64,000 nt of DNA from a virus, in IMG/VR virus record IMGVR_UViG_3300044971_004534; one strand, 5' to 3'. Position 1 is the first letter of the stretch. Each line of letters begins with the position of its first letter. Made by a program: the position numbers and the translations under genes. Below, piece after piece: positions 11,387 to 50,177 of the stretch. A model generated the notes under the pieces. That model saw nothing but the letters and a program-made list of their open reading frames with translations, did not search any database and was not told where the DNA came from.

Positions 11387-11391
11387 CAAAT

Positions 11392-23556: not shown

Positions 23557-23589
23557 AGTACTACTGTTATTTACAAAATGGAACAAAAT

Positions 23590-25553: not shown

Positions 25554-26648
25554 GTGTATGATTATGTAATCGTTGGATCTGGAATATTCGGAGCTGTTTG
25601 TGCAAGAGAGCTAACAGATAGTGGTAAAAAATGTCTTGTAATAGACAAGAGGAATCATATTGGCGGAAACTGTTATACTGAAAATTATAATGGCATAAAT
25701 GTTCACAAATATGGTCCACATATTTTTCATACCAATAGTGATTATGTTTGGAATTATGTAGGCAAATATTGTGCATTTCATAAATACTCTCATCGTGTCA
25801 AGGTTATTTACAAAGATAATATTTATTCTTTTCCAATAAATCTAATGACTCTTTATCAAGTGTGGGGGGTCAAAAGTCCACATGAAGCAGAAGAAAAATT
25901 AAAGTCTATTAGAAAAAATATAAAAAACCCAAAAAACATGGAAGAATGGGCTGTTTCTCAAATAGGAGAAGAACTTTATACTATATTTATACGTGATTAT
26001 ACAAAAAAACAGTGGGGAAAAGATCCTTCAGAATTACCAGCTGGCATCTTAAAAAGATTGCCAATTAGAATGAATTTTAATGATGATTATTTTGAAGACA
26101 AATATTGCGGTATACCTGTTGGGGGATACACTGGTATATTTGAAAAAATGCTTGACGGTATAGAAGTGCATTTGTCAACTGATTATTTTTCAGATAAAAA
26201 TACATTTGCAAGACTAGGTTCAAAAATAATATATACAGGGGGATTAGATGAATTTTTTGATTATGATCTTGGGAAACTTGAATGGAGAAGTTTAAAATTT
26301 GATCATTTACATCTAAATGTCAAAGACTTTCAAGGATGCTCAATTGTAAATTATCCAGAAATAAACATTCCGTATACACGTATTTGTGAGCACAAACATT
26401 TTGAAAATGGCAATCAAAGCCATACTGTAATAACAAAAGAATATCCAGACGCATGGGAAGTGGGAAAAGAAAAATACTATCCAGTAAATGATGAAAAAAA
26501 TAATATACTTTCAAAAAAGTACAAAAACAGAATAGACAACAGTAAATACATATTAGGTGGAAGGCTTGCAGACTATATGTATTATGATATGCATCAAGTT
26601 TTTGCATCAGCACTTGCTGCAGTAAAATCGGAGTTAAACAATGCATAA
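25554..26648 (+). CDS. glf: UDP-galactopyranose mutase
   Basis: GTG start preceded by AAAGGAAA. (M)YDYVIVGSGIFGAVCARELTDSGKKCLVIDKRNHIGGNCYTE...HKYGPHIFHTN...YTKKQWG...GIPVGGYT...YRSLKF...YTRICEHKHF...YYPVND...GGRLADYMYYDMHQV tracks E. coli Glf as I recall it, nearly end to end. Confidence 0.9.
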   Translation: MYDYVIVGSGIFGAVCARELTDSGKKCLVIDKRNHIGGNCYTENYNGINVHKYGPHIFHTNSDYVWNYVGKYCAFHKYSHRVKVIYKDNIYSFPINLMTLYQVWGVKSPHEAEEKLKSIRKNIKNPKNMEEWAVSQIGEELYTIFIRDYTKKQWGKDPSELPAGILKRLPIRMNFNDDYFEDKYCGIPVGGYTGIFEKMLDGIEVHLSTDYFSDKNTFARLGSKIIYTGGLDEFFDYDLGKLEWRSLKFDHLHLNVKDFQGCSIVNYPEINIPYTRICEHKHFENGNQSHTVITKEYPDAWEVGKEKYYPVNDEKNNILSKKYKNRIDNSKYILGGRLADYMYYDMHQVFASALAAVKSELNNA

Positions 26649-27692: not shown

Positions 27693-28620
27693 CTCAAATA
27701 TTCCAGTTGAAGTGATTGAAGATGCAAGATCGTTGGCAGAACGCAACGGCACGACTATTGGTATTTGGGAAGCACAGCCAAATAAGGGAAACAGAGGCTT
27801 TGTTGTGATGCCTACAGAAAACATGCATAAGTTTACTGAAAGAATAGAGATAAAAGGTTTTACTACAAATCCCACCGGTGAAGAGATTATTCCTAATCCT
27901 ATAACAACTATTGATCCACCCGTCAAATACAGAAGAGGTACTGATCTTTATAGAAGGCAAAGATCTGGGTGGAGAAAGCAACCAAAAACTGAACAAGAAA
28001 TTGGAGTAAGAAATATTGAATTAACAGCTCCAGATTTGAGGCTTGTGGCTAAAGTAAAAATGAATAAAAACGAGTGGGTTAAAATTGGAGAGTCTCAAGG
28101 TTGGATTAAGTCTAAAGATGATCCGGCAAATATGAAAGTGGCTCTCCCTGTTCTTCCCTTGCTAGGAGTTGCTGCTAATTTAGCTTCTCCTTTTATTATA
28201 AATTGGATGATGAGCTCTGGAGAGCAACCATCGCAAGATCCACAGCAGTTTCAGGGACAGATGCAACAAATGAGTCAAGAAGTGAAACAGCAAGCAGATC
28301 AAGTGTTAAAGCCGACGATACAGGCGATACAGCAGCAGGCTGCTAGATTAAATGCATACTGTGCTAATGATACTCAGTCTCCACCATGCCCACCAGATGG
28401 AGAAGTAAAAGATATAAATAAATTCAAACAAAAATTAACTCAAATACAGCAAAAAATGAAAAGCACACAATTTAGCAACGATCCAATGTATGTGTGTCAG
28501 CTATATAGAGAAGCACTTGAATTAAATTCTTGTGCTGCATCTGTTATTGGCATGATTAATGAAGTTAAAAATAATATGCAGAATATGGAATTTAATCCTG
28601 CAGCGAATTTAAGACTGTGA
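27685..28620 (+). CDS. tag / hydrophobic-segment / Q-rich family protein (member C) with an extra N-terminal domain
   Basis: The tag KMNKNEWVKIGESQGWIKSKDD is internal (about residue 126). It is followed by ALPVLPLLGVAANLASPFIINWMM and the Q-rich QDPQQFQGQMQQMSQEVKQQADQ. Confidence 0.7.
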   Translation: MSSSNIPVEVIEDARSLAERNGTTIGIWEAQPNKGNRGFVVMPTENMHKFTERIEIKGFTTNPTGEEIIPNPITTIDPPVKYRRGTDLYRRQRSGWRKQPKTEQEIGVRNIELTAPDLRLVAKVKMNKNEWVKIGESQGWIKSKDDPANMKVALPVLPLLGVAANLASPFIINWMMSSGEQPSQDPQQFQGQMQQMSQEVKQQADQVLKPTIQAIQQQAARLNAYCANDTQSPPCPPDGEVKDINKFKQKLTQIQQKMKSTQFSNDPMYVCQLYREALELNSCAASVIGMINEVKNNMQNMEFNPAANLRL

Positions 28621-28629: not shown

Positions 28630-30114
28630 ATGATTAAGAAGAGCATATCTGAAGAATTTTTGAGAAGCCAAGATCCAAGGCTACTTTCTCCTCTTATGTC
28701 TGGAGACAGCAAGTCTTATGCTACTGTAATGATGTATAAATCTTTAGATCAAATGGACGCAAGCGCAGAGATGAAACAAGCTTTAAGTAAGATTGTAGAA
28801 GATGCAAAAGTTAAATTTCCTGATTTTTCCTTTAATCAAGTCCCTTATTATTGGCTCATCAAAGCTTCTAAAGCAAAATATGCTGCTATTAATATACGCA
28901 GCTTTGATGGTAAAACAATTCCAATATTAATAATTCGCCAACATAAAGATAAGGGAGTTGTAATTGGTTATGATTATGTCAACTTAAATAGTGGTCAATT
29001 AGTGTATGCAAGATCTGCTGAATTAATCCAGCCAGTTACCGAAGCATTGCATGGCATGAAGTCGGAAAGTTTAAGTACACTAATTAAGCTCAATAGGGCT
29101 ACTCAGTTTCTTATTAGAGACAAAGAGTCTTGGGCTAGGAATGAAAGGCTTGCTGCTTATGAAAGGGGAGATGTTTCCAATCTTATCCCAGCCATATCTA
29201 TGTTGCAAAAGTGTGAAGAGATATTGACACTACGCATAGAGAGATTGAAAAACATAGTCATTTATTATCAAAATCAAAGTAACACAATTACCTCAGAAGG
29301 ACCACCATCTGTTTTTGAAGATGTGGCTAAGCTTATTGATGAAGAAATTCAGACAAAAGGCTCAAAGTTTATTAAAACAGAACAAGACGCAATACATGCA
29401 TTAGTCATGAGATACTTAGGTAAGTCTGGTGAATTTGAACAAAAAATAAAGTCTGGATCACTTTCAAATATCTTGCCAGATCCATCTGGAAAGCAAAGAC
29501 ACAATGTTAAAGATATACTAGAAGTTGCTTTTAAAATTGTTAAAGAAATTGATGCAGAGGCTGCAAGAAAAAGAGAATCTAGAAAAACATACACTAAAGA
29601 AAGAACTGAAGCTATAGAAAAACCTCAAGAGTTACCAGATACAGAATCTCACCCAATTTTTAAACAGATTACTGCTCCAATAACTGAGGAAAGTTTTAAA
29701 GATATTCTACCTGGAAACATCAAAGGATTTCAACATGCAGGCATGTGGATAGGTGAAAAATATGCAGTAGAGATTAATGAAACAAACTTAAAATTAAATG
29801 CCATGAATAAGATGCTATCAGCTGTTCAGTCAATAATAAAAGTTTTACAGTTAAAGAGAGATACGAAAAAACTTTCAGTAAGTAATTTTAGCAAACAAGA
29901 TCTTAGTGAACTAAGAGACGCTCTCGCTGCATGCATGACTCTTGTAAATTCTTATAAGCAAAGTGTGGTAACAAAAGAAAACAAACTTAATAAGAATATA
30001 GTTCATTCCATATTTGGAGATGCTGCAATGGACTTTTTTGTAGCAAGGTATATTGCAGTAATGATCAAATATATAGAGATGGTGTTCGTTAAATCATATA
30101 AAGAGGCAACATGA
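28630..30114 (+). CDS. hypothetical protein
   Basis: 494-aa ORF with no recognisable motif. ATGA-coupled to the next gene. Confidence 0.7.
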   Translation: MIKKSISEEFLRSQDPRLLSPLMSGDSKSYATVMMYKSLDQMDASAEMKQALSKIVEDAKVKFPDFSFNQVPYYWLIKASKAKYAAINIRSFDGKTIPILIIRQHKDKGVVIGYDYVNLNSGQLVYARSAELIQPVTEALHGMKSESLSTLIKLNRATQFLIRDKESWARNERLAAYERGDVSNLIPAISMLQKCEEILTLRIERLKNIVIYYQNQSNTITSEGPPSVFEDVAKLIDEEIQTKGSKFIKTEQDAIHALVMRYLGKSGEFEQKIKSGSLSNILPDPSGKQRHNVKDILEVAFKIVKEIDAEAARKRESRKTYTKERTEAIEKPQELPDTESHPIFKQITAPITEESFKDILPGNIKGFQHAGMWIGEKYAVEINETNLKLNAMNKMLSAVQSIIKVLQLKRDTKKLSVSNFSKQDLSELRDALAACMTLVNSYKQSVVTKENKLNKNIVHSIFGDAAMDFFVARYIAVMIKYIEMVFVKSYKEAT

Positions 30115-30575
30115 ATAATTGGTATAAAATTTCGCAAGCAAAAGGAGCTCCTCCCCCGCCGCCACCACCCCCGCCACCGCCGCCCGGAGTACCTCCGCCA
30201 CCTCCTGGAGGTGCTGCTCCTGCCGGTCCTTCTGAGCAGCGCGTAGGAACAGTTTCAGGAGTAGACGCAGAAGAAGTTAATGAGATTAAAAAAGATGATA
30301 AAAAATTGCTTAAAAAATTAAATAAGCATTTTAAAAACGCTATCGATTCTGGTCACGATATTGAATTGTCTGCAATTATGGCAATTATGGCAAATGGATC
30401 TACGTTAAGTCCTGGGCAGCTAGATATAGCAGAAACATTTGACCCTGATTTCCCCGAACAAGATCCTCCCTTCATAAGGTCAATCATAGGAATTCATTTG
30501 GGGACTAAGGCGCCAGGTCAGGCTACTCCTGATGGAGCCACAGGAGCTCCACCACCGCCTCCTCCAGGTCTATAA
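30111..30575 (+). CDS. polyproline protein with N-terminal MNNWYKISQ tag
   Basis: MNNWYKISQAKGA-P12-GVPPPPPGG ... GAPPPPPPGL. Proline tracts lie at both ends of a ~100-aa helical core. Confidence 0.75.
   Translation: MNNWYKISQAKGAPPPPPPPPPPPPGVPPPPPGGAAPAGPSEQRVGTVSGVDAEEVNEIKKDDKKLLKKLNKHFKNAIDSGHDIELSAIMAIMANGSTLSPGQLDIAETFDPDFPEQDPPFIRSIIGIHLGTKAPGQATPDGATGAPPPPPPGL
30150..30206 (+). repeat. GC-rich CCN run encoding P12-GV-P5
   Basis: cct ccc ccg ccg cca cca ccc ccg cca ccg ccg ccc gga gta cct ccg cca cct cct. This is a local GC island in an AT-rich genome. Confidence 0.9.
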
Positions 30576-30576
30576 A

Positions 30577-31209
30577 ATGGAAAAGTATCCATTTAGTTTA
30601 CCAGAACTTAAGTATGAATACAGTTTTCTCGAGCCGGAAATATCTCGAGAGACTATGAAGTTGCACCATAGTAAGCATCACAAGTCTTATGTTGAAAAAC
30701 TTAATGAATTTGTTAATGGTAACGATTTTTTAATGGAATTACCCATAGACCAATTAATAAGTAAAAAAACTTTAGATGAACTTGATGATGATTTAGCTCA
30801 AAAGATTAGAGACTTTGGTGGTGGTCACATGAACCATATCATGTACTTTAATATGTTTGAAGGCGGTCATAAAAAAGTAGGAAAAATGCTAGAATCTCTT
30901 ATTAAGAGAGACTTTGGAGATTTTAAAACTTTTGAAAAAGAGTTTAAGCAAAAATCTCAAGACCACTTTGGATCTGGATGGTGCTGGCTTATTTTAAACA
31001 AACATGGTCTTAAAATAAAGACAACAACCAATCAAGACAGTCCATTAAATACAGAAGTATGCAAAGTCATCATGGGTGTAGATCTGTGGGAGCACAGTTA
31101 CTATGTTGATTTTAGAAATAGAAAAAAGGAATATATAGACAAAATTTGGGAAAAGATAAATTGGAGAGACCTAGATAACATAATTTTGGAGGCAGAATAT
31201 GTCAAATGA
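30577..31209 (+). CDS. Fe/Mn superoxide dismutase
   Basis: The ATG at 30577 gives MEKYPFSLPELKYEYSFLEPEISRETMKLHHSKHHKSYVEKLN. The C-terminal metal-ligand motif is DLWEHSYY. Confidence 0.9.
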   Translation: MEKYPFSLPELKYEYSFLEPEISRETMKLHHSKHHKSYVEKLNEFVNGNDFLMELPIDQLISKKTLDELDDDLAQKIRDFGGGHMNHIMYFNMFEGGHKKVGKMLESLIKRDFGDFKTFEKEFKQKSQDHFGSGWCWLILNKHGLKIKTTTNQDSPLNTEVCKVIMGVDLWEHSYYVDFRNRKKEYIDKIWEKINWRDLDNIILEAEYVK

Positions 31210-34228: not shown

Positions 34229-35074
34229 ATGAATTCATCGACTAATAAATATGAAAGAAAAGTACTAGATCATGGTCTAGTTAGACTGGTAGATACCATG
34301 CCAAACGCAAGCGGAGACAGTCCGTTTGAGACTGCTGTTGTACAGATGGCTAGAGTAAGTTATGGAAGCGGCACAAAGTCTTTTAGAGAAGATCTTGGCC
34401 TGGTCAAGTATTTATTAGAAAACGACCATACCAGTCCTTTTGAGGGAGTAACACTTAAATTTCACATTAAGATGCCAATATTTGTTGCAAGACAGTGGAT
34501 TAGGCATCGAACTGCAAGTGTAAATGAGTATTCGGCTAGATATTCTGTTGTTGAAGATGTTTTTTACATTCCAGATCCAACCAGATTGACCACTCAAAGC
34601 TTATCCAATAAGCAAAGTTCTTCTGACACCATGATTGAAAATGCGGAGCAGGTATCTGCAAAAATTGCCGCACATTCAAAAGAATGCTATGAGCTTTACG
34701 AAAGTTTACTTTCTCAAGGACTATCAAGAGAACTTGCAAGAATGGTTATACCTGTAAACGTGTATACAGAAATGTATTGGGTAATGAATTTGCACAATTT
34801 GCTTAAGTTTTTGAGACTAAGAATGGATCATCACGCTCAGTATGAAATTCGTGTATTTGCAGACGCAATTTTTGATATTGTAAATGAAATAGCGCCCAAC
34901 ATTATGGAAGTATGGAAGTCTTCTCAACTAGAATCTGTAAGATTTACTGGGGAAGAACTAGAGGTTATTAAAAGCATAATTTCTGTTGGGTGTGAACCAG
35001 CGATTCCAGAATCATGGAGCAAAAGAAGAAAAGACGCTTTTACTGAAAAACTAAGCGTTTTTAGTCAAGAGTAG
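34229..35074 (+). CDS. thyX: flavin-dependent thymidylate synthase
   Basis: ThyX signature RHRTASVNEYSARY (RHR..S.....S.RY), plus HTSPFEGV and the typical ~280-aa length. Confidence 0.9.
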   Translation: MNSSTNKYERKVLDHGLVRLVDTMPNASGDSPFETAVVQMARVSYGSGTKSFREDLGLVKYLLENDHTSPFEGVTLKFHIKMPIFVARQWIRHRTASVNEYSARYSVVEDVFYIPDPTRLTTQSLSNKQSSSDTMIENAEQVSAKIAAHSKECYELYESLLSQGLSRELARMVIPVNVYTEMYWVMNLHNLLKFLRLRMDHHAQYEIRVFADAIFDIVNEIAPNIMEVWKSSQLESVRFTGEELEVIKSIISVGCEPAIPESWSKRRKDAFTEKLSVFSQE

Positions 35075-35663: not shown

Positions 35664-35978
35664 ATGTTAGAACAATTTATTCTCTCCACTATAGGTGGTA
35701 TTGGAATGGCTACTCTAATTGTAGAAAAGGGCGATGACTTTCCAATTAAACCTTTTAAAAACATCGCTCACACAATAGTTAAAAAGTTGCTAGGCGACTC
35801 ATGGGCAAAGGTATTTGAATGCACTGTATGCATGTCTTTTTGGACGGCATTGCTATGTGAAGCTTTTTTGTTTATGTTTTCAAAGACTTTCACATGGCCA
35901 GTAAGCGGGTTTGCTGCTGCAGGTATTTCATTTTATCTAATTGATTTTTTGAACACCATAGACAATAGAAAAGGATGA
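35664..35978 (+). CDS. small membrane protein (DUF1360-like, from memory)
   Basis: The ATG at 35664 gives MLEQFILSTIGGIGMATLIV. The FECTVCMSFWTALLCEAFLF C..C.SFW motif and two further hydrophobic helices are present. Confidence 0.55.
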   Translation: MLEQFILSTIGGIGMATLIVEKGDDFPIKPFKNIAHTIVKKLLGDSWAKVFECTVCMSFWTALLCEAFLFMFSKTFTWPVSGFAAAGISFYLIDFLNTIDNRKG

Positions 35979-36808
35979 ACAACATGAAGAAAATTAAGAA
36001 AGAAAAAGTAAAAAAGCACAAGATAAAGCAAGATCCCGAGCTGTGGAAAAAACTTGATGATCTAAGAAATGCTGTTAAAGATTTTCACAACAGTGAGCCA
36101 TATAAGAGAGTAAGAGCTCAGCTAGCAGAGCTCAATTACCCAATAGTTATTAAGTTAGCTGATTTACTTCATCATAAGTATCCAGAAACTGATAGAGATG
36201 ATCTTCAGGGCTTTGGAAGCATAGGTCTTCTAGATGCCATAGATAAATTTGATCCATACAAAGATATTCAATTTGAAACATTTGCAACTTATCGCATATT
36301 TGGATCTATGTACGATGAAATGAGAAAACTTGATTGGGTTCCCAGATTAACTCGCCAGCGGCATTCTAAGGTTGAAAAAATACGTGACAAATTTATTGCA
36401 GAAAATGGAAGAGTGCCAACTAATGAGGAAATGATGGACATGGTTTCAGGAAGTTCTGTAACAGAAAAACAAAAAACTATAGACGACAGTATAATCAAGA
36501 TGTCCTACTCTATTAATAAGTTGCCGTTTGAAGATGAAGAAGATGATTTTTCTAGCATGCATGTTGATAAAAAACCTTGTCAAATAAAAGAGCTAGAAAG
36601 AAAAGAATTTTTTGCTAATAAAATTGCACCAGGATTAAACGATCTTGAAACAAGATTTGTGTACTTAGTGTATTACGAAGGAAGATCTTTAAAAGAGGCT
36701 GCACAAATACTACAAATTAAAGAAAGTAGAAGTTCTTCTGTTCACGAAGCTGCTCTGAAAAAGCTAAAGGAAATTTTTAAGGAAAAAGATGAATTGATTG
36801 TGAGATAA
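35975..36808 (+). CDS. sigma-70 family RNA polymerase sigma factor (group 3/FliA-like)
   Basis: Region 2: DDLQGFGSIGLLDAIDKFDPYKDIQFETFATYRIFGSMYDEMRKLDWVPR. Region 4 HTH: YYEGRSLKEAAQILQIKESRSSSVHEAALKKLK. Confidence 0.85.
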   Translation: MNNMKKIKKEKVKKHKIKQDPELWKKLDDLRNAVKDFHNSEPYKRVRAQLAELNYPIVIKLADLLHHKYPETDRDDLQGFGSIGLLDAIDKFDPYKDIQFETFATYRIFGSMYDEMRKLDWVPRLTRQRHSKVEKIRDKFIAENGRVPTNEEMMDMVSGSSVTEKQKTIDDSIIKMSYSINKLPFEDEEDDFSSMHVDKKPCQIKELERKEFFANKIAPGLNDLETRFVYLVYYEGRSLKEAAQILQIKESRSSSVHEAALKKLKEIFKEKDELIVR

Positions 36809-38079: not shown

Positions 38080-40629
38080 ATGACCAAAATTGCACCAACT
38101 GTCTCAGAGACAGACATTGTAAGCGTTGTTAGTGAAATTAAGCAGGTAGTTTATACCTATGATGAGGCTATAGAAGCTAGCTCTAAATATTTTAATGGAG
38201 ATGAGCTTGCTGCTAAAGTGTTTGTAGACAAGTATGCCTTAAGAAATCAGAATCAGCAGATCGTTGAAAAAGATCCTGATGACATGCACAGAAGAATTGC
38301 AAGAGAATTCGCAAGAATAGAAAAAAGCAAATTCAAGAATCCGCTAACTGAAGATTTTATATATGAAACTTTAAAGAACTTTAGTAGAATTGTTGCTCAG
38401 GGGTCTCCAATGTATGGCATTGGCAATAAGCATCAATTTATATCTTTGAGCAACTGCTATGTTGTTGCCTCTCCCTTGGATGCTTACGGTTCAATCATGG
38501 AGGCTGATGAAAACTTAGTCCAAATTAGTAAGCGTCGCGGTGGTGTAGGAATTGACATATCTCATCTAAGACCTGCTGGAGCTCCAACAAAGAATGCAGC
38601 AAGAACAAGCACTGGCGTTGTCTCATTTGCAGAGCGTTATTCTAACTCTATTAGAGAAGTTGGGCAAGCAGGCCGTCGTGGTGCTCTCATGATTACTCTT
38701 GACGTGCACCATCCAGACATCTTAGAGTTCGCAAAGGTTAAAAGAGATTTATCAAAAGTAACTGGAGCAAATATATCTATTCGTCTCACAGATGAGTTTT
38801 TAAAGGCTGTTGACGCAGATCAAGATTATGAACAGCGTTGGCCAGTTGATTCAAAAAATCCATCTATTTCAAAGAAAATTAATGCAAGATCTGTTTGGCA
38901 GGTAATTGTTGAAAATGCCCATCACATGGCTGAGCCTGGACTGCTTTTTTGGGACAACATAATTAATGAAAGTCCAGCAGACTGCTATGCGGAGCTTGGG
39001 TTTAAGACTATAAGTACAAATCCATGTTCTGAGATTCCACTATCGGCTTTTGATAGTTGCAGACTTATGTTATTAAATGCATTTGGCTATGTTGAGAAGC
39101 CATTTACAAAACAAGCTACATTTAACTTTGATAAATTCAATGCTGATGCCGAAGTTTGTCAAAGACTAATGGATGATTTGGTAGACTTAGAAGTCGAGTG
39201 CATTGAAAGAATTCTTTCTAAGATCACAAGTGATCCCGAGAATAGCGAAGTTAAGGCAAGAGAAGTTAAGCTGTGGAATAATATTAAAATTGCTGCTATT
39301 AATGGTCGCAGAACCGGTACAGGAGCGACTGCTATTGGAGATGCTCTAGCAGCACTGGGGCTTGCTTACACAAGTGAAAAAGGCATAGAAATGACAGAAA
39401 AGATTTACAAAAATCTTAAGCTTTCTGCCTATAGAAGCAGTGTAAATATGGCAAAAGAAATTGGAGCATTCCCAATATGGAATCCTGATCTTGAAAAGAA
39501 CAATCCATTCTTGAATAGAATTAAAGATGAAGATCCAAAGCTTTATCAAGATATGCAAAAGTATGGTCGTAGAAATATTGCGTTACTAACTACTGCGCCA
39601 GCAGGATCAGTTTCCATACTAACCCAAACATCAAGCGGGATAGAGCCTCAATTTATGATTGAACCCTATGTCCGTCGCAAGAAGGGCAATCCTGGAGATA
39701 GTGGTTTTAGAAGTGACTTTGTAGATCAAAATGGTGATCACTGGATGGAATTTAAAGTTTATCCACCAAAGGTTAAAATGTGGATGGAAGTCACTGGAGA
39801 AAGCGATCTAAACAAGAGTCCATGGAAGGGCTCAACTGCTCCTGAACTTGACTGGAGAAAGCGCGTATATCTCCAATCTGCAGCGCAGAAGCATCTTGAC
39901 CACGCCATATCAAGTACACTGAACCTTCCAAATGATGTGTCTGTAGAGTCAGTGGATGAAATCTACAGAACTGCATGGAAGAGCGGATGTAAGGGCATTA
40001 CAATCTATCGTGACGGTTGCAGAACGGGTGTTCTTGTGGCAGAAACAAAGAAGAAAGACAATAATGATGAGATCGTTATCACAAAAGCACCAAAGCGACC
40101 AGAAACACTGGAGTGTGATGTTCATCACTGCTCTGTCAAGAATAGTCCATATTTCGTGATCGTAGGTAAACTAAAAGGGAAACCATATGAAGTTTTTGCA
40201 AGTATGAATCATATTTCTGAAAATGAAGATGATATGCTTATTACCAAGAATTTCAATGATGGAACTTTGACAAAAGAAGCCAGAGGGCACTATCGTGCAG
40301 ATCTACAGGATAAGCACGGCAATAAGATGACAATAAAGAAAATTGGAGATAAGCTCTCTGAAGAAGAAGCTGGTCTTACCAGAATGATATCAACTGCGCT
40401 AAGGCATGGAGCTGATGTTCAATTTATTGTTCATCAATTAGAAAAGGTTGAGGGATCTATGCATGGGTTTTCAAAGAGTGTATCTCGTGCTTTGAAAAAA
40501 TATATTGCAGATGGTACAGAAGTTTCTGGTGAAACATGTGGAAATTGCAAGACTCAGGAAAAAGCAGCGCTCGTAAGGCAAGAAGGCTGCATAACCTGCA
40601 AGTCTTGTGGATGGTCAAAGTGCGGATAA
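38080..40629 (+). CDS. nrdJ: class II (adenosylcobalamin-dependent) ribonucleotide reductase
   Basis: AAGGAGAAG RBS. KVFVDKYALRN, RRGGVGIDISHLRPAGA, thiyl-radical loop STNPCSEIPL, TTAPAGSVS, and a C-terminal Cys cluster CGNCK...CITCKSCGWSKCG. There is no adjacent NrdB-like gene. Confidence 0.9.
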   Translation: MTKIAPTVSETDIVSVVSEIKQVVYTYDEAIEASSKYFNGDELAAKVFVDKYALRNQNQQIVEKDPDDMHRRIAREFARIEKSKFKNPLTEDFIYETLKNFSRIVAQGSPMYGIGNKHQFISLSNCYVVASPLDAYGSIMEADENLVQISKRRGGVGIDISHLRPAGAPTKNAARTSTGVVSFAERYSNSIREVGQAGRRGALMITLDVHHPDILEFAKVKRDLSKVTGANISIRLTDEFLKAVDADQDYEQRWPVDSKNPSISKKINARSVWQVIVENAHHMAEPGLLFWDNIINESPADCYAELGFKTISTNPCSEIPLSAFDSCRLMLLNAFGYVEKPFTKQATFNFDKFNADAEVCQRLMDDLVDLEVECIERILSKITSDPENSEVKAREVKLWNNIKIAAINGRRTGTGATAIGDALAALGLAYTSEKGIEMTEKIYKNLKLSAYRSSVNMAKEIGAFPIWNPDLEKNNPFLNRIKDEDPKLYQDMQKYGRRNIALLTTAPAGSVSILTQTSSGIEPQFMIEPYVRRKKGNPGDSGFRSDFVDQNGDHWMEFKVYPPKVKMWMEVTGESDLNKSPWKGSTAPELDWRKRVYLQSAAQKHLDHAISSTLNLPNDVSVESVDEIYRTAWKSGCKGITIYRDGCRTGVLVAETKKKDNNDEIVITKAPKRPETLECDVHHCSVKNSPYFVIVGKLKGKPYEVFASMNHISENEDDMLITKNFNDGTLTKEARGHYRADLQDKHGNKMTIKKIGDKLSEEEAGLTRMISTALRHGADVQFIVHQLEKVEGSMHGFSKSVSRALKKYIADGTEVSGETCGNCKTQEKAALVRQEGCITCKSCGWSKCG

Positions 40630-43861: not shown

Positions 43862-44476
43862 TTATGTGCATATTCTATTATAGTCGCTATCTCTCTGGAA
43901 CTTACTTGCTAATTCTGCTAAAGTGACTGGAAGCCAAGAAGCAAATATCTTTTCTAATTTTTCGTCAAGCTTCTTGCCTTTTGCGGTTGGAGTTTCAAAA
44001 GCGGTTCCAGTATCTTCATAAACATCATGAAGTTCATTATAAACATATGGTATTCTTTTTATTTCTTGCATAATGCTACTAAAGTAAGGAGAGCCTGGGA
44101 ACAGACTGCCATTGCTCTTCTTGTACAGGCAAAGCATTGTTTGAATTTCTTCAGGTAAATCTTTAAAATTGTTTACATTTTCTGTAGCTTGCTTAAAACT
44201 ATCTTTCATTTCTTTAGAAGTTCTTTCCATAACATTAGAAGTGTCAAGGCCATGAACCTCTCCCATGCCACGTAAGCCCTTAGCAAGAGCCAAGGTTGAT
44301 GTTCCACCCATTAGGTGATTAACCAGCGGGCTGTCTGTAACGCCCCTTAAAAGCCCCCATAAGGGACTTCCAGGGCTTCTCTTGGTTTCTTCAGCTAGTT
44401 CCTTAGCCGTTTCTTTTAACGGACCTATGGCTTGTTTTTTCATATGTATAAAATTGTCGGTTTTAAGAATTATCAT
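43862..44476 (-). CDS. hypothetical protein
   Basis: 204-aa ORF with AAGGGA before the ATG. N-terminus MIILKTDNF. Confidence 0.6.
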   Translation of the reverse strand: MIILKTDNFIHMKKQAIGPLKETAKELAEETKRSPGSPLWGLLRGVTDSPLVNHLMGGTSTLALAKGLRGMGEVHGLDTSNVMERTSKEMKDSFKQATENVNNFKDLPEEIQTMLCLYKKSNGSLFPGSPYFSSIMQEIKRIPYVYNELHDVYEDTGTAFETPTAKGKKLDEKLEKIFASWLPVTLAELASKFQRDSDYNRICT

Positions 44477-44484: not shown

Positions 44485-45069
44485 TTATCTTGAATATTCA
44501 CCAGTTATTACATAAAGTTGCTGTATATTCTTTCCTAATGGAGGAAATACAGGTCCTATTGAGCCAAAAAGATTTTCTTGTTCTATCCATCTGTGTATCT
44601 TTTTAGCCTGTTGCTTGAACTTGATTGGAACCTTTCCTATAACGTCTTGTATTTCATGTGGCATTACGGGGGGAAATGCACTCATGTCTAGTTTTCTTGT
44701 GCCTCGAATGTTGCACATTTGCTCTGGAGTCATGACTGTTCTTGCAATAGAGCTTCTAGATCTTTGATGCATAAGTTGAGTTGTTCTTGAACTTAAGAAA
44801 TTTAAACCATTGATAACGGACTCAATCAACCATACCATCTTTTGCATTTTTTCTAACTCAAATTTTTCTCTTGGAACAAGAGGTGGATTTTTTTCATCAT
44901 CTTCTTGAGCTTTTTTCTCTTCAGATATAATATAATTTAATTCTACTAATTCTGATTCTAAAAACCAAATACTGCTGTCTGCCAGCATTTGTTCTGTTGG
45001 TGTAAGTGTGTATTCTGTATTTGATTCTAATTTAGAATATAAATTAGTAAGGATATTCTTAAATGGCAT
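44485..45069 (-). CDS. hypothetical protein
   Basis: 194-aa ORF, first gene of the minus-strand trio 43417..45069. Confidence 0.6.
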   Translation of the reverse strand: MPFKNILTNLYSKLESNTEYTLTPTEQMLADSSIWFLESELVELNYIISEEKKAQEDDEKNPPLVPREKFELEKMQKMVWLIESVINGLNFLSSRTTQLMHQRSRSSIARTVMTPEQMCNIRGTRKLDMSAFPPVMPHEIQDVIGKVPIKFKQQAKKIHRWIEQENLFGSIGPVFPPLGKNIQQLYVITGEYSR

Positions 45070-45114: not shown

Positions 45115-45975
45115 ATGTATTCATCGAACAGTTTGCACTTTACAAGAAATAGTCAACTATTAGAAAAACTAGCACAAGCTACTCAGGGCAATCAGTATGT
45201 AGATATTAGTGGCAAGCCTTCTAAAACACCTGTTCTATATGATCACGGTGGAAGAAAATACTATTATATGTCAGACGGTAGAAGAATTGATCAACTATCA
45301 GGTACAGTAATAGATACAGATCAAAATGTAGCTCAAAAAGCAAAAGATTATGCCGCATCGACAGCTCAAGCAGCATCACAACAGCAAGCTCAAAAACCTG
45401 GAGTAAATCCAGCCGCAAAATTTATAGAAGTGAACGAAACAAGAAAAAAGTTTAATCTTCCTGAGTATAGATCTGTACAAGAGATGATTCAAAAAGAAAA
45501 AGATTTGAATGAAGACTATCAGGCAGCAATGCAAAATTATATAGAAAATTATGGATGGACAGCTGATCAATTTTACAAGCATTATCCAACTGTTTATGAT
45601 TTTGCAGTTGATTTGCAAAAACCAGATCTTTCATCTGGTGGTAGAAAAGATTTTAGTGATGAAAGAATATTGAAATCTATTCTTACTTTTAATGAAGATG
45701 AGTTAAACAAAATACCAACACAAGAAGCATTTAGAGTTTTAGATGCATTTATTGGTAGACTTCCAAATATTAATGTAAAAAATGAAACATTTGATCAGTA
45801 TGAAAGACGCTTAAGAATAGATCTACTCAAGTATCGTATGATAAATCCAAAAATGATGGAACACATCATAAAGCAAAAGATGGTGGATGCTCAACAGAGA
45901 CTAGGAAGACAAAATCCAGCCATAGCAGCAGCATATCAAGAAAGAGCTGCTCAAAGAAGTTACCGAAATAGATAA
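45115..45975 (+). CDS. hypothetical protein
   Basis: 286-aa ORF followed by a terminator. Contains LEKLAQATQG near the N-terminus and HGGRKYYYMSDGRRID. Confidence 0.65.
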   Translation: MYSSNSLHFTRNSQLLEKLAQATQGNQYVDISGKPSKTPVLYDHGGRKYYYMSDGRRIDQLSGTVIDTDQNVAQKAKDYAASTAQAASQQQAQKPGVNPAAKFIEVNETRKKFNLPEYRSVQEMIQKEKDLNEDYQAAMQNYIENYGWTADQFYKHYPTVYDFAVDLQKPDLSSGGRKDFSDERILKSILTFNEDELNKIPTQEAFRVLDAFIGRLPNINVKNETFDQYERRLRIDLLKYRMINPKMMEHIIKQKMVDAQQRLGRQNPAIAAAYQERAAQRSYRNR

Positions 45976-45997: not shown

Positions 45998-46015
45998 ACA
46001 GGCATTTCTGCCTGT
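45998..46015. terminator. bidirectional rho-independent terminator
   Basis: acaggca tttc tgcctgt, flanked by an A run (5') and a T run (3'), between convergent genes. Confidence 0.65.
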
Positions 46016-46042: not shown

Positions 46043-46975
46043 TTATCTATCTTCAAATTCACCCGTATAAGAATATCTCTTAGCACTCTTGTCAAATACA
46101 ACTTTAAAGTATCTTTTCTTGCCGTCTGGAGCAGCATAAGGTCCGTAGTAACCCTCTATATTTGCTTGCTTGCCATCTGGGAAGAAATAATTAGGCTGAC
46201 GAACATTAGATGCTGAAGAGCTAGCAGGTGGTAACTGAGTGTTACCGGGAGTTGCTGGAGTAGAGACACTAGCTTGTCCACCGCCGCCAGCTTGTCCACC
46301 GCCGCCAGCTTGTCCACCGCCGCCAGCTTGAGATGGAGGCGGCTTAGAAGCTACGTCATCTTTGCCACCTCCAGTTGAACCTGGAGTTGCTCCGGGTGCG
46401 GGTGCAGGTGCGGGCTTTTTACCTTCTGGTCCAGCTCCAAGTGGAACGTTGGGGTCATACGGGCTTCTTGCTTCTTGCTGTGGGCCTTGCGCCTTGGGAC
46501 TTCCTCCGCCGCCTTGAGAAGCTGCTGCTCCAGCTCCAGCTGCACCGCCAGCCTGTATCTTTGAGTTAATTCTACTAGCAAGTTTATCTAAAAATGCAAG
46601 GCGAGACTCAAATCCGCCTCTCATTCCAATTTCTTTTATACCTGCGGCTTCTTGTTGAGATATATCCCAAAGACCAATAAAATTCTTAGCAGCATCTTCA
46701 CGATTAGGACCTTTTGTAATTCTGTCTTTCCAGTAATTAATTACTTGAAGTTTTTCTGTAGGATCTAAGCTTTCAAAATATCCACTACCAGCTCCAGCAA
46801 CAGGAAGTCTATCAAAACGTCCTGCTTGCATAAAAGCAAGAGCTTTTTGCTTGTTCATTTGCTGCATAGATTCTTGTTGCATTTCTGCCAACTCAGATTG
46901 TTGAGCAATTTTCTTAAAATTACCAGAAGACTTTAGTAAAACTTTATTTGTAATTTTTTGTTTTCTGTTATTCAT
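46043..46975 (-). CDS. Gly/Ala/Pro-rich low-complexity protein
   Basis: N-terminus ...SSGNFKKIAQQSE. The central region is GGAAGAGAAASQGGGGSPKAQGPQQ...PAPAPAPGATPGSTGGG...(GGGQAG)x3. The C-terminus is a globular YFKVVFDKSAKRYSYTGEFEDR. Confidence 0.7.
   Translation of the reverse strand: MNNRKQKITNKVLLKSSGNFKKIAQQSELAEMQQESMQQMNKQKALAFMQAGRFDRLPVAGAGSGYFESLDPTEKLQVINYWKDRITKGPNREDAAKNFIGLWDISQQEAAGIKEIGMRGGFESRLAFLDKLASRINSKIQAGGAAGAGAAASQGGGGSPKAQGPQQEARSPYDPNVPLGAGPEGKKPAPAPAPGATPGSTGGGKDDVASKPPPSQAGGGGQAGGGGQAGGGGQASVSTPATPGNTQLPPASSSASNVRQPNYFFPDGKQANIEGYYGPYAAPDGKKRYFKVVFDKSAKRYSYTGEFEDR
46271..46328 (-). repeat. perfect 18-nt tandem repeat x3 (agcttgtccaccgccgcc) encoding GGGQAG units
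   Basis: Three identical 18-mers read directly at 46271-46324, plus a partial fourth. Confidence 0.9.
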
Positions 46976-46991: not shown

Positions 46992-47729
46992 TCAAATTTC
47001 GAATCTTTGCTTTAAAGCATCTGCTGTTCCTGTACCAGATGGCTTAGCTGCTGCTGCTGCTGCTGCTGGCGCTGACTGCTGTGGAGGAGCAGATGGGGTT
47101 GGTGCAGGAGGAGGTTGTGTGGAAGTTGGAGCTTGAGGAAGTTGCTGAGTATTTGTTTTACCAGTGAGTGCCTCATAATTAATAGGTTCCTTTCCTGTTG
47201 CAATCAGCATATCATTCATAAGTTCATCTTCTTCTAAAAGCTTCTTGCCAGCTTCAAAAGCAGGACCAATTCCTCTTTCAGTAAGTCTTTGAGATATTGT
47301 TGCAATTCTTTCACTTAATTTAGCATCAATATTTTTAAGATCATTATCTAGACGATCAGATATGCCGCCAAGTCTTGATTTCACTTCTTGTTGGAATCTT
47401 GCTTGTGCATCTTGAAGAGCTTTTAGCATTTCTGGAGTTTCTGAACCACCAGACCACCAGTCTTGAGCAGACTGTAGCAAGTTTGATTTACTGAATATAG
47501 ATGCTAAAGCTCCAACTGCACCGCCAGTTAATCCAGCTCTCAGAGCAGATCCGAATAGAGCGCTACCTGCTCTTCCAAGTGCTGGACCAACAGCCCTTCC
47601 AAGATTATAGGCTAACTGAGCTTCTTTATTGAGTGTGAATGTTCCATCAGCTTCAGCAGTAACGTATCCTTTTCTGATGCCTGAAGCAAGCCACTGTGTT
47701 TGAGATATTTTTATCATTTCTTTTTTCAT
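46992..47729 (-). CDS. tag / glycine-zipper / helix family protein (member D)
   Basis: MKKEMIKISQTQWLASGIRKGYV tag; GRAVGPALGRAGSALFGSALRAGLTGGAVGALASIF zipper; LGGISDRLD helix; C-terminal PPPAPTPSAPPQQSAPAAAAAAAKP. Confidence 0.8.
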   Translation of the reverse strand: MKKEMIKISQTQWLASGIRKGYVTAEADGTFTLNKEAQLAYNLGRAVGPALGRAGSALFGSALRAGLTGGAVGALASIFSKSNLLQSAQDWWSGGSETPEMLKALQDAQARFQQEVKSRLGGISDRLDNDLKNIDAKLSERIATISQRLTERGIGPAFEAGKKLLEEDELMNDMLIATGKEPINYEALTGKTNTQQLPQAPTSTQPPPAPTPSAPPQQSAPAAAAAAAKPSGTGTADALKQRFEI

Positions 47730-47738
47730 GTTAACCTC

Positions 47739-48968
47739 TTATTTTGGTAAATAATCTGGAGACTGTGGAGCAGAGGCTCCTGGTGCATATCTATTTCTTA
47801 AAGCTTCAGCTATCTGATCTTGCTTTTTCATAGCTGGACCACGTGAAGTTGGTTGAGTTTGCTGTATTTGTCTTTGTAAATCAGCAATTGTAGCCATTGT
47901 ATTTCTCATTTCCTTATCAAGCACTTTACTAATGCCTGCAATGGGCTGGAATACCATTTGTAGTGAAGCAATGCCTCGCTGGAAATCTTGAGGTCTGTAA
48001 TCTTTCATTTGATTATTACCTCTTGCTGCATCAAAAAGAGCATCAGCGCCATAATATCCGGCTAATCCACCACCAAGTGCTGCAGCACCACGGCCAAGCA
48101 TTTGTCTACCAGTTAATGCTGGAGTTGGATTTGGAGTTGGATTTGGAGTTGGATTTGGAGTTGGATTTGGAGTTGGATTTGGAGTTGGATTTGGAGTTGG
48201 ATTTGGAGTTGGATTTGGAGTTGGAGTTGGAGTTGGATTTGGAGTTGGATTTGGAGTTGGATTTGGAGTTGGATTTGGAGTTGGAGTTGGAGTTGGATTT
48301 GGAGTTGGATTTGTTCCACCGCCACCGCCAGAAGTGCCACCACCAACTAAGCCAACAGCAGCTCCTCCTTTGTATGGAACAGCGCTCTTAAATGCAGCTA
48401 CAAATTGTGCATTATCCATACCAGCACCCGCTGGATCAGTAACTCTTAAGTTACCCTTTCCTACCATTCTTTCAAGAAGATTTTTGTCTTGATTATATAA
48501 CTGAATCATTTGAGAATTTCCAGCAGGGTCTGTTACTTTTAATAAAGATCTTTCCAAACCTCCAGCACGTGATGCAATAACGTCAAACTTGAAATTTTGT
48601 CTTTGATCTGCAGGAATAGCCTGTATCGCAGAAATAGCACTGTCTCCTTGGAATCTTAAGGCTCCAAGTTGAGACATTCTACCTTCTCTAAATCTATTCC
48701 ATCGCTCTCTTAATTTTAATGCAGCTTCTGGATCTTGTGGATCTATTTTTGCTTGAGCGCGGCTACCAGAGTCACTTTGCAACCAATCTTCAAAAGACGG
48801 AAGTTGAGCAGCAATAGAAGGGTCATACAAAGATCCCTGCGCTACCTTCACTACGCCATCACCTTCTGTGTAAAATAAGCCTTTATCTAGGCCAACCTGA
48901 AGCCACTCACGGGAGCTCATTTTAATCATGGGTTTAGACGAATTTGCTGTTTTAATAAAACGTGCCAT
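47739..48968 (-). CDS. tag / PT-repeat / glycine-zipper / helix family protein (member E)
   Basis: [27 protein letters not shown] tag; [10 protein letters not shown] then about 66 aa of (N)PTP repeats; [15 protein letters not shown] zipper; [13 protein letters not shown] helix. Confidence 0.85.
48121..48312 (-). repeat. 12-nt tandem repeat (ggagttggattt; ~16 units with 6-nt variants) encoding NPTP repeats
   Basis: Read directly from the sequence. The coding-strand unit is AAT CCA ACT CCA. Occasional ggagttggagtt units give PTPTP. Confidence 0.95.
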
Positions 48969-49029
48969 TATGTAATTTCCTCCAAATGCTATATGTTATT
49001 CAAAATAATATAAATGTTTTCCTCTTCAT

Positions 49030-49758
49030 TTACTTATTTTTTGCTGCGTCTAACTGTCTAATTAAGTCTAAAACGGTTGCGACGCCTTCTGCCATACTCT
49101 TGTCAAGACTTTTAGATATTCCAGCTATATCTTTAGCAATCATAGTTAATTTAAGTGCGGCTCCTTTAAATTTAGGGATACTGCCTGCTTTTTGTTCTAT
49201 TACTGATGGAGATGCAACATTAAATCCTTTTCTTTGGTCTATAGTTGCATCAGCTATCCAGTCAGCAAGAAGGTATCCTCCAACCCCACCGGCACCAGCA
49301 GCAAGACCTCGACCAGCAACTGTTCTTGCCTTACTTGGACCCAGAATAGAACGGATTCTACTGGGTCTTGTTGTTGACTGAAGGGCTGCCACCTGTTCTG
49401 GAGATATAACTCCACTAGATCTTAAATATTCTCGCAATCTTGCTGGATCTGCAGCAATTGCGTTTATAACTGCAGGATCAACATTTTGCTGCCTACTTTG
49501 CATAATGCGTGAAACAAGCATTTGTGCACCAATGCTGCCAGCAACAACACCAAAAACAGAATTACCGTCTGATTGCTCCGATTCTCTTGAACGTTCTGGA
49601 GACTCATTACGTCTTGACGCTTCACCTGGATTTATAATGCCTCCAGAAGCAGAAGGAAATGGCATATTTGTAACATCAAAAGCAACTTTGCTTCGTGTTG
49701 AAACCCAGTTGTTTTCTATGCCTATTTTTAACCAATCTGCTGAAGACAGCTTAATCAT
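49030..49758 (-). CDS. tag / glycine-zipper / helix family protein (member F)
   Basis: A start at MIKLSSADWLKIGIENNWV (49758) gives an ATGA overlap with the upstream stop; the listed start is 49797. AGGVGGYLLADWIAD zipper and DIAGISKSLDKSM helix are close to member E. Confidence 0.8.
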   Translation of the reverse strand: MIKLSSADWLKIGIENNWVSTRSKVAFDVTNMPFPSASGGIINPGEASRRNESPERSRESEQSDGNSVFGVVAGSIGAQMLVSRIMQSRQQNVDPAVINAIAADPARLREYLRSSGVISPEQVAALQSTTRPSRIRSILGPSKARTVAGRGLAAGAGGVGGYLLADWIADATIDQRKGFNVASPSVIEQKAGSIPKFKGAALKLTMIAKDIAGISKSLDKSMAEGVATVLDLIRQLDAAKNK

Positions 49759-50090
49759 GGAAGCTTGGTATTCTTTCTCCAAGCTTTGCAACTCCAATAT
49801 CTGGCACTTGTTCTGTCTTTAGCCTGATCGCACTTATGTCTAGCTAAAAAGCTCTTCTGTCTACTTGGCTTATTTCTCTTAATTGACAGTGTTTTTTCAC
49901 CTTTTGCCTTGGCGCTTGAGCCACCATGACCAAAGTTAACCTTCTTTACATTTCCACTCTTTGGATCTTTGACATATACCTTAAATTTCTTTACATCGCC
50001 CTTCATGATCTTGCCTAGTGGAACATCTTTACCGCCATGCTTTGCGGCTTCTTTACGCATTTCGTAGTTATTTGAATTGAATTCGAGCAT
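49755..50090 (-). CDS. small basic conserved phage/virus protein
   Basis: KVNFGHGGSSAKAKGEKTLSIKRNKPSRQKSFLARHKCDQAKDRTSARYWSCKAW. I recall this pattern (F.ARH.C....D..SA.YWSC) from phage and giant-virus small proteins. Confidence 0.65.
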   Translation of the reverse strand: MLEFNSNNYEMRKEAAKHGGKDVPLGKIMKGDVKKFKVYVKDPKSGNVKKVNFGHGGSSAKAKGEKTLSIKRNKPSRQKSFLARHKCDQAKDRTSARYWSCKAWRKNTKLP

Positions 50091-50101: not shown

Positions 50102-50138
50102 AAAAAAAGAACAGTACGGTTTTTACTCCGTACTGTTC
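50102..50138 (-). terminator. rho-independent terminator (minus strand)
   Basis: gaacagtacgg / ccgtactgttc forms an 11-bp stem with an 8-nt loop. On the minus strand it is followed by TTTTTTT. It lies between 50178..50852 and 49755..50090. Confidence 0.75.
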
Positions 50139-50177
50139 CATACCCCTTTTTATTAAAATATAAATATATGTATGAAA

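Follow-up and report, generated by a model that had tools for sequence, protein, structure and literature searches.

Large phages have many proteins that are packaged or localised, but transferable signals that can be read from sequence are known for only a few model phages (the T4 capsid-targeting sequence, CTS, and P1 DarB), and those do not generalise. The T4 CTS is MKTYQEFIAE, and T4-type CTSs are cleaved by a gp21-type prohead protease at L/I-x-E. The T4 internal proteins are diverse, sharing only the capsid-targeting sequence (PMC3012670). In phage P1, the large enzyme DarB or a reporter is targeted to the capsid by as little as the 30 N-terminal residues of DarB, which may need tertiary structure, and the Dar proteins have no consensus signal in common (PMC9024508). 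In this study, we analysed a 64,000-nucleotide (nt) stretch of IMG/VR virus record IMGVR_UViG_3300044971_004534 (hereafter the window), and found that three tandem genes (A, B and C) encode proteins with a common N-terminal domain, here called the tag, and a common C-terminal module. The tag core is h-K-h-S-x3-W-x3-G-x3-G-[WY] (h, hydrophobic), often closing in K-x-A-Q. We found the tag on two further members of the same family (E and F) and on many unrelated phage proteins, and we tentatively read it as a sorting or packaging module.

The tagged proteins are organised like the T4-type internal proteins (IPI, IPII, IPIII and Alt), in which clustered genes encode small, often basic proteins that evolve fast and are otherwise unrelated, and a short conserved N-terminal element is all that defines the group. 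Two arrays of tagged proteins of 70-180 amino acids (aa), on IMG/VR contigs L022 and L044, have a very similar layout. However, the tag is 27-45 aa long, has a predicted fold and may be internal, repeated or C-terminal, and no gp21-type protease or L/I-x-E site is linked to it. The window N-termini (M-I-K-h-S-x3-W-x3-G...) bear no resemblance to the T4 CTS and matched no PHROG internal-protein family. The P1 DarB signal, with ~30 N-terminal residues and suspected folding, matches the tag in size and logic, but here one consensus is common to many proteins and many phages.

The head-internal families of phiKZ-type phages are multi-gene and low-complexity, carry N-terminal propeptides (giant-phage processing motif S/A/G-x-E) and sit among recognised head genes. 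Inner-body or ejection-protein paralog families of this kind are described in the giant phages phiKZ, 201phi2-1 and SPN3US (PMC5694885, PMC7411985). The family found here is likewise a multi-gene set of paralogous low-complexity proteins in a large phage, but no sequence relationship to those families was found in PHROGs. The ejection proteins of podoviruses (gp7, gp20 and gp16 of P22; gp14, gp15 and gp16 of T7) are helical, lack classical transmembrane (TM) helices, stay soluble inside the capsid and, once ejected, assemble a conduit across the envelope. Genes A, B and C are also three consecutive genes for helical proteins without classical TM helices. In contrast, they have no homology to the podovirus proteins, the family has five members in two loci, and it is not linked to a head or tail module.

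We examined the relationship among A, B and C by BLASTP. The tags are similar in all pairs (A/B, E=2e-5; A/C, E=4e-4; B/C, E=4e-4), and B and C have 74 C-terminal aa in common (E=5e-8). The layout of this C-terminal module is collinear: a Gly-rich segment is followed after 35-45 aa by a helix with [IL][AG]G[IM]S..[LV]D. The module of A is collinear though weaker (Gly-rich segment, ~40 aa, LGGISDRLD). By reading all N-termini in the window and by searching with a hidden Markov model (HMM) of the tag, we found two additional members, E and F, which also lie in tandem. E, in which the module follows the tag at once, is the minimal form of the architecture.

Each module was scored with an HMM built without that paralog and compared with 500 composition-preserving shuffles. 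The left-out modules of A (10.2 bits; shuffle maximum 6.2), B (35.6 bits), C (28.4 bits) and E (20.2 bits) were not reached by any of the 500 shuffles, so the failure against shuffles that the initial annotation had named as grounds for giving up the family did not occur. The module of F was marginal (7.1 bits, equalled by 4/500 shuffles; p about 0.01). When an HMM of the B, C, E and F modules was run against the 541 open reading frames (ORFs) of the window, A was the top non-member match (E=0.0016). In a full-length MAFFT alignment, GIS..LD lined up across A-, B-, C- and E-type homologs, and in a 16-sequence C-type alignment W9, G13, G161, F197 and G213-I-S..L218-D219 were invariant or nearly so. 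All three elements (tag, Gly-rich segment, GIS..LD helix) are collinear in A, B, C and E, with F marginal as to the module. Together, these five paralogs form one modular family. The architecture described in the initial annotation, a shared N-terminal tag and conserved modules separated by differing linkers, is thus upheld by the pairwise E-values and the shuffle tests, and the motifs that it listed are real, albeit given in mixed gene order. Its count of three members must be raised to five (the module of F being marginal), and two more proteins, D and I, carry the tag alone.

Chance or compositional likeness among Gly/Ala-rich low-complexity ORFs is hardly credible as an explanation of these similarities. 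The proteins are indeed low-complexity, the module of F is marginal and the amphipathicity of the helix is unexceptional, but the shuffle tests and pairwise E-values refute chance resemblance for A, B, C and E. In addition, orthologs keep tag and module at 19-31% overall identity. An exhaustive profile search of 1.84e9 proteins returned only 17 clusters, all unannotated; each was of A-, B-, C- or E-type, and generic Gly-rich proteins did not appear.

The same searches placed the family outside described ones. Pfam and PHROGs searches with the trio and its neighbours matched only a low-complexity Pro/Thr repeat. In a word-indexed protein search, C retrieved six orthologs only, the module alignment retrieved one truncated E ortholog, and the 41-aa tag alignment gave no match among the 20 candidates collected. 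A tblastn search of 50,697 phage records gave zero matches for the gene C protein, and cultured phages showed no match to the locus by blastn, nor by tblastn of C, of a 1042-aa window protein or of several tag consensus strings. The family is absent from Pfam, annotated PHROGs, the PDB and cultured-phage records, and the earlier statement that it belongs to no described phage family agrees with the Pfam, PHROGs, PDB profile and cultured-phage searches.

Orthologs were identified for C (P0001-P0006), B (P0009, P0021, L001, L011, L012), A (P0020, P0022, P0023, L011, L012) and E (P0015, L008). The gene order, an AAA ATPase on the opposite strand followed by a ~224-aa gene, a 111-aa gene, C, B, A and a Gly/Ala/Pro-rich gene (G4), is kept on the contigs of relatives. 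The cassette 111aa-C-B-A-G4 is syntenic in L001, L010, L011 and L012, where C is only 19-31% identical. The trio also marks out a five-gene cassette that is conserved in a phage clade with no cultured member so far. The 111-aa protein, which contains Cys (...ARHKC...YWSCKAW), is ~85-90% identical (by eye) over the same distance, although C is translationally coupled to it, which indicates that its downstream neighbours evolve much faster. As a general partner of the tag, the 111-aa protein was rejected; among the loci compared, it is present in the cassette clade only.

B orthologs retain the tag and the module and exchange the middle region and the repeat, even among close relatives. The spacer repeat is NPTP x16 in the window, PVPPNPA in P0009, GGGGGGTTPAP in L001 (9531-10430) and TPDPK in L011 (6236-7192), and the ~170 aa ahead of it are unrelated between the window and L001. 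The NPTP linker pointed out in the initial annotation was recovered by Tandem Repeats Finder (TRF) in the window (Table 1).

To follow the tag beyond this phage, we scanned IMG/VR with a back-translated DNA pattern of I-K-h-S-x3-W-x3-G-x3-G-W. We found 47 matches at 37 loci, of which ~40 read as the tag by eye, nearly all at ORF N-termini. The tags have a short form (MKIKLSKSQWEEMGKKAGWhK.AQ) and a long form (MKIVKTASGKQTIKISKKEWTDIGKKAGWMKKAQ), and the prefix of the long form accounts for the N-terminal prefixes of B and of F (MAIIKTSSTTGKKT in F). The distant C-type consensus is [ML]-I-K-I-S-x3-W-x3-G-x3-G-W-h-x(1-3)-K-x-A-Q. The bodies behind the IMG/VR tags are mutually unrelated, mostly 60-270 aa, and matched no Pfam or annotated PHROG family. 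The contigs that bear tags range from about 50 kb to 476 kb, and include contigs of 161, 296 and 476 kb. The tag, which the initial annotation had described in the trio, thus also stands on many unrelated proteins of many uncultured phages, and the question moves from the identity of the trio to the purpose of the tag.

Tandem arrays of tagged genes were detected with the tag HMM on three contigs: five genes in L022 (2-1716, -), four in L044 (4074-5955, +) and five within 5 kb in L020 (5896-11219, +). The array genes are small, have a common ~34-aa tag followed by full divergence, and lie on unrelated contigs. L042 (9496-10812, -) encodes a 430-aa protein with three long-form tags, the first followed by a Gly-rich segment as in E, and L039 (198-2756, +) encodes a >790-aa protein, GHKL-like by eye from its motifs, with the tag at the extreme C-terminus. 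The triple copy in L042 and the C-terminal copy in L039 indicate that the tag is portable as a domain and more than an N-terminal leader. The same pattern, scanned over 596 Gb of bacterial and archaeal genomes, gave 64 singletons, only two of which read as tags, both on short contigs of metagenome-assembled genomes; this near-absence from cellular genomes marks the tag module as phage-specific. On L022, a trypsin-like peptidase gene (5127-6191, -) lies ~3.4 kb from the tag array. The tag-rich 52.9-kb contig L029 (1493-4957, 7444-10494, -) encodes an AAA ATPase with a Hint/LAGLIDADG intein and a 1143-aa protein ending in a DUF559/MTES_1575 endonuclease domain.

Tags of the L022 array are identical at 28-32 of 34 aa (82-94%) and have 9-13 synonymous codon differences. 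Of their identical residues, 30-45% are encoded by different codons, and the DNA of the 45 nt upstream shows no relationship (29-44% identity). Identity among the window tags is no more than 30-45%, but they retain W, G and G-[WY]. These data bear on the possibility that the shared N-termini are a by-product of a process at the DNA level, such as gene conversion between neighbours or a mobile 5' cassette for regulation or translation initiation, the peptide itself being without function. T4-type phages are known to have mobile promoter cassettes, the tagged genes are clustered in tandem, and two neighbouring L020 genes have near-identical M[SN]WYKWAQ N-termini. However, the synonymous divergence and unrelated upstream DNA in L022 rule out a DNA cassette that spread recently as well as gene conversion, and the tag is also found internally and at a C-terminus. 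This very improbable explanation is largely refuted by the L022 synonymous-site analysis. The tag is a portable, phage-specific N-terminal domain under purifying selection at the peptide level.

The fold of the tag was predicted with AlphaFold2 (AF2) for residues 1-52 of B from a 24-sequence alignment (predicted local distance difference test, pLDDT, 75.7). The model has strands at 3-5 and 14-16, a helix at 19-28, and strands at 32-34 and 40-42. A Foldseek search against the PDB gave a best E of 1.3, BFVD gave nothing below E=0.2, and a profile of the tag had 0 matches at E<=10 among PDB sequences. The literature yielded no description of an equivalent tag or module. The beta-beta-alpha-beta-beta order in ~45 aa and a loose h-K..G..h-I-[PS]..-helix-G pattern, in our own reading, resemble the swapped hairpin of SpoVT/AbrB (MazE); an AbrB/MazE-like tag was rejected, as the PDB profile search, Foldseek (no AbrB/MazE target) and Pfam gave no match to it.

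Another explanation is that the tag is a small nucleic-acid-binding domain, a basic beta-hairpin plus helix with a wing-like character, in which case the tagged proteins would be DNA- or RNA-associated regulators or genome-condensing proteins. The best local Foldseek match was the helix-plus-wing of the DtxR/AraR DNA-binding domains (25 aa; root-mean-square deviation 1.3-1.8), but with E>1, and no significant sequence or fold match to DNA-binding families was found. The bodies are basic, and the IMG/VR long-form tags are too (10 Lys vs 2 acidic residues in 34 aa, by eye). Charge, however, is not conserved, the window tags carrying ~+2 by our own count, whereas W, G, G-W and the hydrophobic positions are. 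A dozen such regulators per genome would be unusual, and we consider this explanation quite unlikely.

We next consider the Gly-rich segment and the helix, which the initial annotation read as a glycine zipper of a membrane-inserting or pore-forming protein and as an amphipathic helix. The Gly-rich segments of all five paralogs contain a GxxxGxxxG motif, and their maximum in the Kyte-Doolittle 19-aa window (KD19) is 1.11-1.45, where the usual TM threshold is ~1.6. Asp, Lys, Ser and Thr occur within them, above all in distant homologs. The only TM-grade segment is that of protein I (KD19 1.85), which is not a zipper. No Pfam glycine-zipper family was found by hmmscan of A, B and C at E<=0.1. 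The pattern resembles the Pfam glycine-zipper families (Gly-zipper_Omp, Gly-zipper_YMGG, Rick_17kDa_Anti) and weak anchors of the signal-arrest-release (SAR) type in being GxxxG(G)xxxG-like, Gly/Ala-rich and weakly hydrophobic, but its conserved element departs from a plain zipper, reading G-x-x-[AG]-G-[YW]-[YFL] with an acidic or amide residue next. The GIS..LD helix is conserved, but its hydrophobic moment of 0.44-0.57 is moderate and is reached by 7-14% of shuffles. With hydrophobicity below the TM range, no Pfam zipper and an unexceptional moment, constitutive membrane insertion is unsupported, and the pore reading, which is based on the GxxxG pattern, is weakly supported. Conditional membrane insertion, as in ejection proteins, is possible.

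The main alternative to a packaging role is that the family proteins are membrane-anchored and act inside the infected cell. The tag would then be a cytoplasmic juxtamembrane domain, the Gly-rich segment a weak SAR-like anchor, and the helical, low-complexity C-terminal part periplasmic; possible roles include spanin-, holin- or antiholin-like lysis control, superinfection exclusion, and anchoring of a replication or assembly site. The layouts of E and I suggest such an arrangement. In E, the tag leads directly into AFAPLVTGLLGGVAGMAGNYLY (KD19 1.26). In I, it is followed by LPVLPLLGVAANLASPFII and then by a Gln-rich C-terminal region whose four Cys hint at an oxidising compartment. Protein I, which has a conserved ~120-aa N-terminal domain and an ortholog in L008, resembles a type II inner-membrane protein that has a domain in the periplasm. 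Pro/Thr-rich spacers like the (NPTP)16 of B are typical of envelope-spanning linkers, and A has a weak apolipoprotein-like Pfam match (E=0.025). On the other hand, the Gly-rich segments of B, C and F lie 150-280 residues from the tag, include the polar and charged residues noted above and have KD19 of 1.1-1.45, and the distant C-type homologs are even less hydrophobic there. Most IMG/VR tagged proteins are without a hydrophobic segment, which excludes membrane anchoring as the general role of the tag, and five paralogs are many for a lysis function. We regard membrane anchoring as unlikely; the scaffold-only, nucleic-acid-binding, DNA-cassette and chance explanations rank lower.

We favour a reading in which the tag is a sorting or packaging module and the family proteins are internal or ejection proteins, and we assign it a probability of about 0.35, by analogy with the described signals. 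As a shared address or docking element, the tag domain would direct diverse cargo to a single destination built by the phage, most likely the interior of the assembling capsid, much as capsid-targeting sequences do for P1 DarB and the T4 internal proteins. The five paralogs would be packaged internal or ejection proteins whose basic, helical, low-complexity bodies may travel with the DNA, and whose marginally hydrophobic Gly-rich segment and helix may engage the host envelope at genome delivery. The K-x-A-Q end of the tag would be either the last strand of the domain or a maturation-cleavage site. The bodies are basic and low-complexity (net charge +8 in B, +9 in C, +19 in F and +12 in G4), and C, the one member modelled in full, was predicted by AF2 to be helical and disordered, with low confidence (pLDDT 45). 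Basic low-complexity bodies, segments below the TM range, the replaced spacer of B and the untagged tail-fibre-like genes fit packaged or ejected proteins. The broader claim, that the tag is a general phage sorting domain (27-45 aa, beta-beta-alpha(-beta-beta)) that routes dozens of unrelated cargoes to the capsid interior or another phage-built compartment in a broad range of uncultured phages, is slightly less probable.

Several points weigh against the packaging reading. The capsid interior as destination is drawn purely by analogy. The tag directly precedes the most hydrophobic segment in E and I, a layout equally consistent with an inner-membrane protein whose cytoplasmic domain lies next to the membrane, and the internal or C-terminal tags of L042, L039 and I speak against a simple cleavable N-terminal leader. 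Because the tag is absent from the cultured phages searched, there is no experimental result to borrow. A major capsid protein, portal and prohead protease were all unrecognised among the window genes, the tagged genes are dispersed among replication and metabolic genes, and the family genes have no linkage to head genes in the window. Finally, a glucose-6-phosphate dehydrogenase with a short W-Y-K-x-A-Q N-terminus, whose homology to the tag we infer, is an unlikely capsid cargo.

The absence of adjacent capsid, portal and protease genes in the window also tells against a related explanation, in which the proteins act in head assembly as core or scaffold components: the tag would recruit them, they would help to form the prohead or set its size, and they would end up degraded or expelled instead of being ejected into the host. 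In the AF2 model, C is helical, of low complexity and folds poorly by itself, the cassette set is conserved and co-transcribed, and L029 encodes an acidic scaffold-like protein with a start like the tag prefix (KVVKTASANGKTKTV), all of which would suit a scaffold. But scaffolds are usually single genes with acidic products, the family proteins are basic, and their hypervariable spacers suggest host-facing evolution. A scaffold-only role is, in our estimate, about as improbable as nucleic-acid binding.

If the packaging reading is true, the tag would be a cross-lineage capsid-targeting code, and the packaged or ejected proteome, including an A/B/C/E/F family that engages the envelope, could be read from sequence. 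Ejected effectors and anti-defence proteins would become predictable from metagenomes, the tag would offer a handle for loading foreign proteins into capsids, and tandem fast-evolving sets such as A, B and C would be explained. A tag that acts like a capsid-targeting sequence would be a new, cross-lineage, folded variant of it; one with another target would be further from what is known. With another destination, such as a membrane site or an assembly factory, the tag would still be a new domain family absent from Pfam and PHROGs.

The features of the window are listed in Table 1. As initially annotated, A, B and C are minus-strand ORFs in tandem with a 61-nt gap between C and B, a 9-nt gap between B and A, and an ATGA overlap. 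The span had been drawn to 49797; the three ORFs are real, but C starts at ATG 49758 and not at TTG 49797, since every ortholog opens with MIKLSS or MIKISS. The starts of B (MARFIK, 48968) and A (MKKEM, 47729) are backed by homologs. The suggestion that the neighbour G4 belongs to the same functional unit holds in part: it lies inside the hairpin-bounded unit and is syntenic in distant relatives (L001, L011 and L012, where K-h-A-Q near residue 22 is retained), but it has no tag HMM match and no module. G4 also contains an 18-nt repeat at 46271-46330. The intergenic regions are AT-rich, with no clear common promoter motif for early or late timing.

Table 1. Coordinates of the cassette, of other tagged proteins and of selected genes in the 64,000-nt window
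Feature	Position	Strand	Description
Hairpin and T-run	50108..50139	-	12-bp stem with 6 GC pairs; between 224-aa and 111-aa genes; upstream boundary or 5' leader of the unit
111-aa gene	49755..50090	-	First of the unit; stop overlaps C start as ATGA; phrog_7595, E=5e-13 (no function annotated)
Gene C, 242 aa	49030..49758	-	Tag, Ser/Glu-rich linker, helical middle, Gly-rich segment, IAGISKSLDK helix
Tag of C (MIKLSSADWLKIGIENNWVSTRSKVAF)	49678..49758	-	Tag HMM match; BLASTP to A and B
C-terminal module of C	49033..49329	-	Gly-rich segment to IAGIS helix; BLASTP B/C; left-out HMM 28.4 bits
Gene B, 409 aa	47739..48968	-	Long-form tag, ~170-aa variable region, Gly run, (NPTP)n linker, module, tail
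Long-form tag of B	48813..48968	-	AF2 predicted beta-beta-alpha-beta-beta; prefix aligns with MKIVKTASGKQT of IMG/VR tags
12-nt tandem repeat	48120..48313	.	16.2 copies, coding the NPTP linker of B; TRF, 97% matches
C-terminal module of B	47853..48116	-	Left-out HMM 35.6 bits
Gene A, 245 aa	46992..47729	-	Tag, Gly/Ala-rich segment, helical region with LGGISDRLD, Pro/Ala/Gln-rich tail
Tag of A (MKKEMIKISQTQWLASGIRKGYVTAEADGTFTLNKEAQ)	47598..47729	-	Tag HMM 41.8 bits; BLASTP
Module of A	47271..47567	-	Most divergent in the tandem trio; only F scores lower
Gene G4, 310 aa	46043..46975	-	Gly/Ala/Pro-rich; last of the unit; N-terminal ..FKKIAQ; C-terminal ~50 aa conserved
Terminator-like hairpin	45998..46015	.	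Bidirectional; 3' of G4; downstream boundary of the unit
Paralog F, 393 aa	20639..21820	+	Long-form tag (MAIIKTSSTTGKKTVILNDQEWVAQGIINGW), Ala/Pro-rich linker, Gly-rich segment IMGGVGIGGLLMGAGGAYL, helix, Gln-rich tail; tag HMM 55.4 bits
Paralog E, 187 aa	21839..22402	+	Tag, then at once Gly-rich segment, NIAGMSPQVDEAI helix, Gln-rich tail
Protein D, 150 aa	9210..9662	+	Tag (DIKISKYDWINIGIHAGWIK) on an unrelated body
Protein I, 311 aa	27685..28620	+	Internal tag (aa 124-146; DNA 28054-28140), then KVAL and TM-grade segment; Gln-rich, Cys-containing region
UDP-galactopyranose mutase	25554-26648		
Fe/Mn superoxide dismutase	30532-31209		
ThyX	34229-35074		
Sigma-70-family factor	35975-36808		
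Class II ribonucleotide reductase	38080-40629		With TSCPD domain

The window has a low GC content (~36%), and its source is a large uncultured aquatic phage. In addition to the enzymes and the sigma factor in Table 1, it encodes a dUTPase/dCTP-deaminase-like protein and an SNF2 helicase. Its structural-type genes are tail-fibre-like genes and a phrog_1645 virion protein, the latter ~44% identical to cyanomyophage/HMO-2011 proteins. The tail-fibre-like genes at 52.8-64 kb are without the tag, by reading of N-termini and by the tag HMM. A phmmer search with protein D independently retrieved IMG/VR tagged proteins, via the tag. The SNF2 helicase (16964-20569, -) starts with MRLFDIIKTSQTLQSGRNIITFTKDLL, which by eye is loosely like the long-form tag prefix (h-h-K-T-[AS]..G-[KR]-x-h-I); it had no tag HMM match.

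We also examined the K-x-[AS]-Q signature in the window genes. 13 of the 19 occurrences fall within the first 50 residues, where a share of 16.5% is expected (binomial P=6.6e-7; some of the genes are paralogous and the counts are not fully independent). In the relative L012, this holds for 5/5. The carriers include A, B, G4, the divergent gene 45115-45975, the 899-aa (3205-5904) and 1042-aa (5858-8986) proteins, 10705-11241, 23584-24354 and 30111-30575. K-x-[AS]-Q may be where the tag domain ends or where processing takes place. A W-Y-K-x-[AS]-Q N-terminus was found on a LysM peptidoglycan-hydrolase-like protein (23584-24354, +; MTWYKLSQ), on a protein with a 12-residue poly-Pro run (30111-30575, +; MNNWYKISQ, MNNWYKISQAKGAPPPPPPPPPPPP) and on the 1042-aa protein (+; ..MGWYKFAQ). 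We infer that W-Y-K-x-A-Q corresponds to the C-terminal half of the tag (G-W-h-K-x-A-Q), possibly as its minimal form.

A strict M-x-N-W-Y-K-x-A-Q scan of IMG/VR gave 5 matches against ~2 estimated by chance, which indicates that the exact short form is not common. In L020, the adjacent genes 11177-11647 and 11646-12971 (+) both open with M[SN]WYKWAQ. The first contains a DGRHR motif that is ParB-like by eye, and the second, starting MNWYKWAQ, is the glucose-6-phosphate dehydrogenase (Pfam G6PD_N and G6PD_C, E down to 6e-63) and calls for caution in equating the short form with capsid cargo.

Three genes past the downstream end of the cassette, beyond 45115-45975 (opposite strand) and 44485-45069, lies a gene for a 204-aa protein (43862-44476, -) that starts with MIILKTDNFIHMKKQAIG. 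It has a weak Pfam Pesticin/lysozyme-like match (E=6.5e-4, below the gathering threshold), and its orthologs keep K-K-x-A-[QI] near residue 13.

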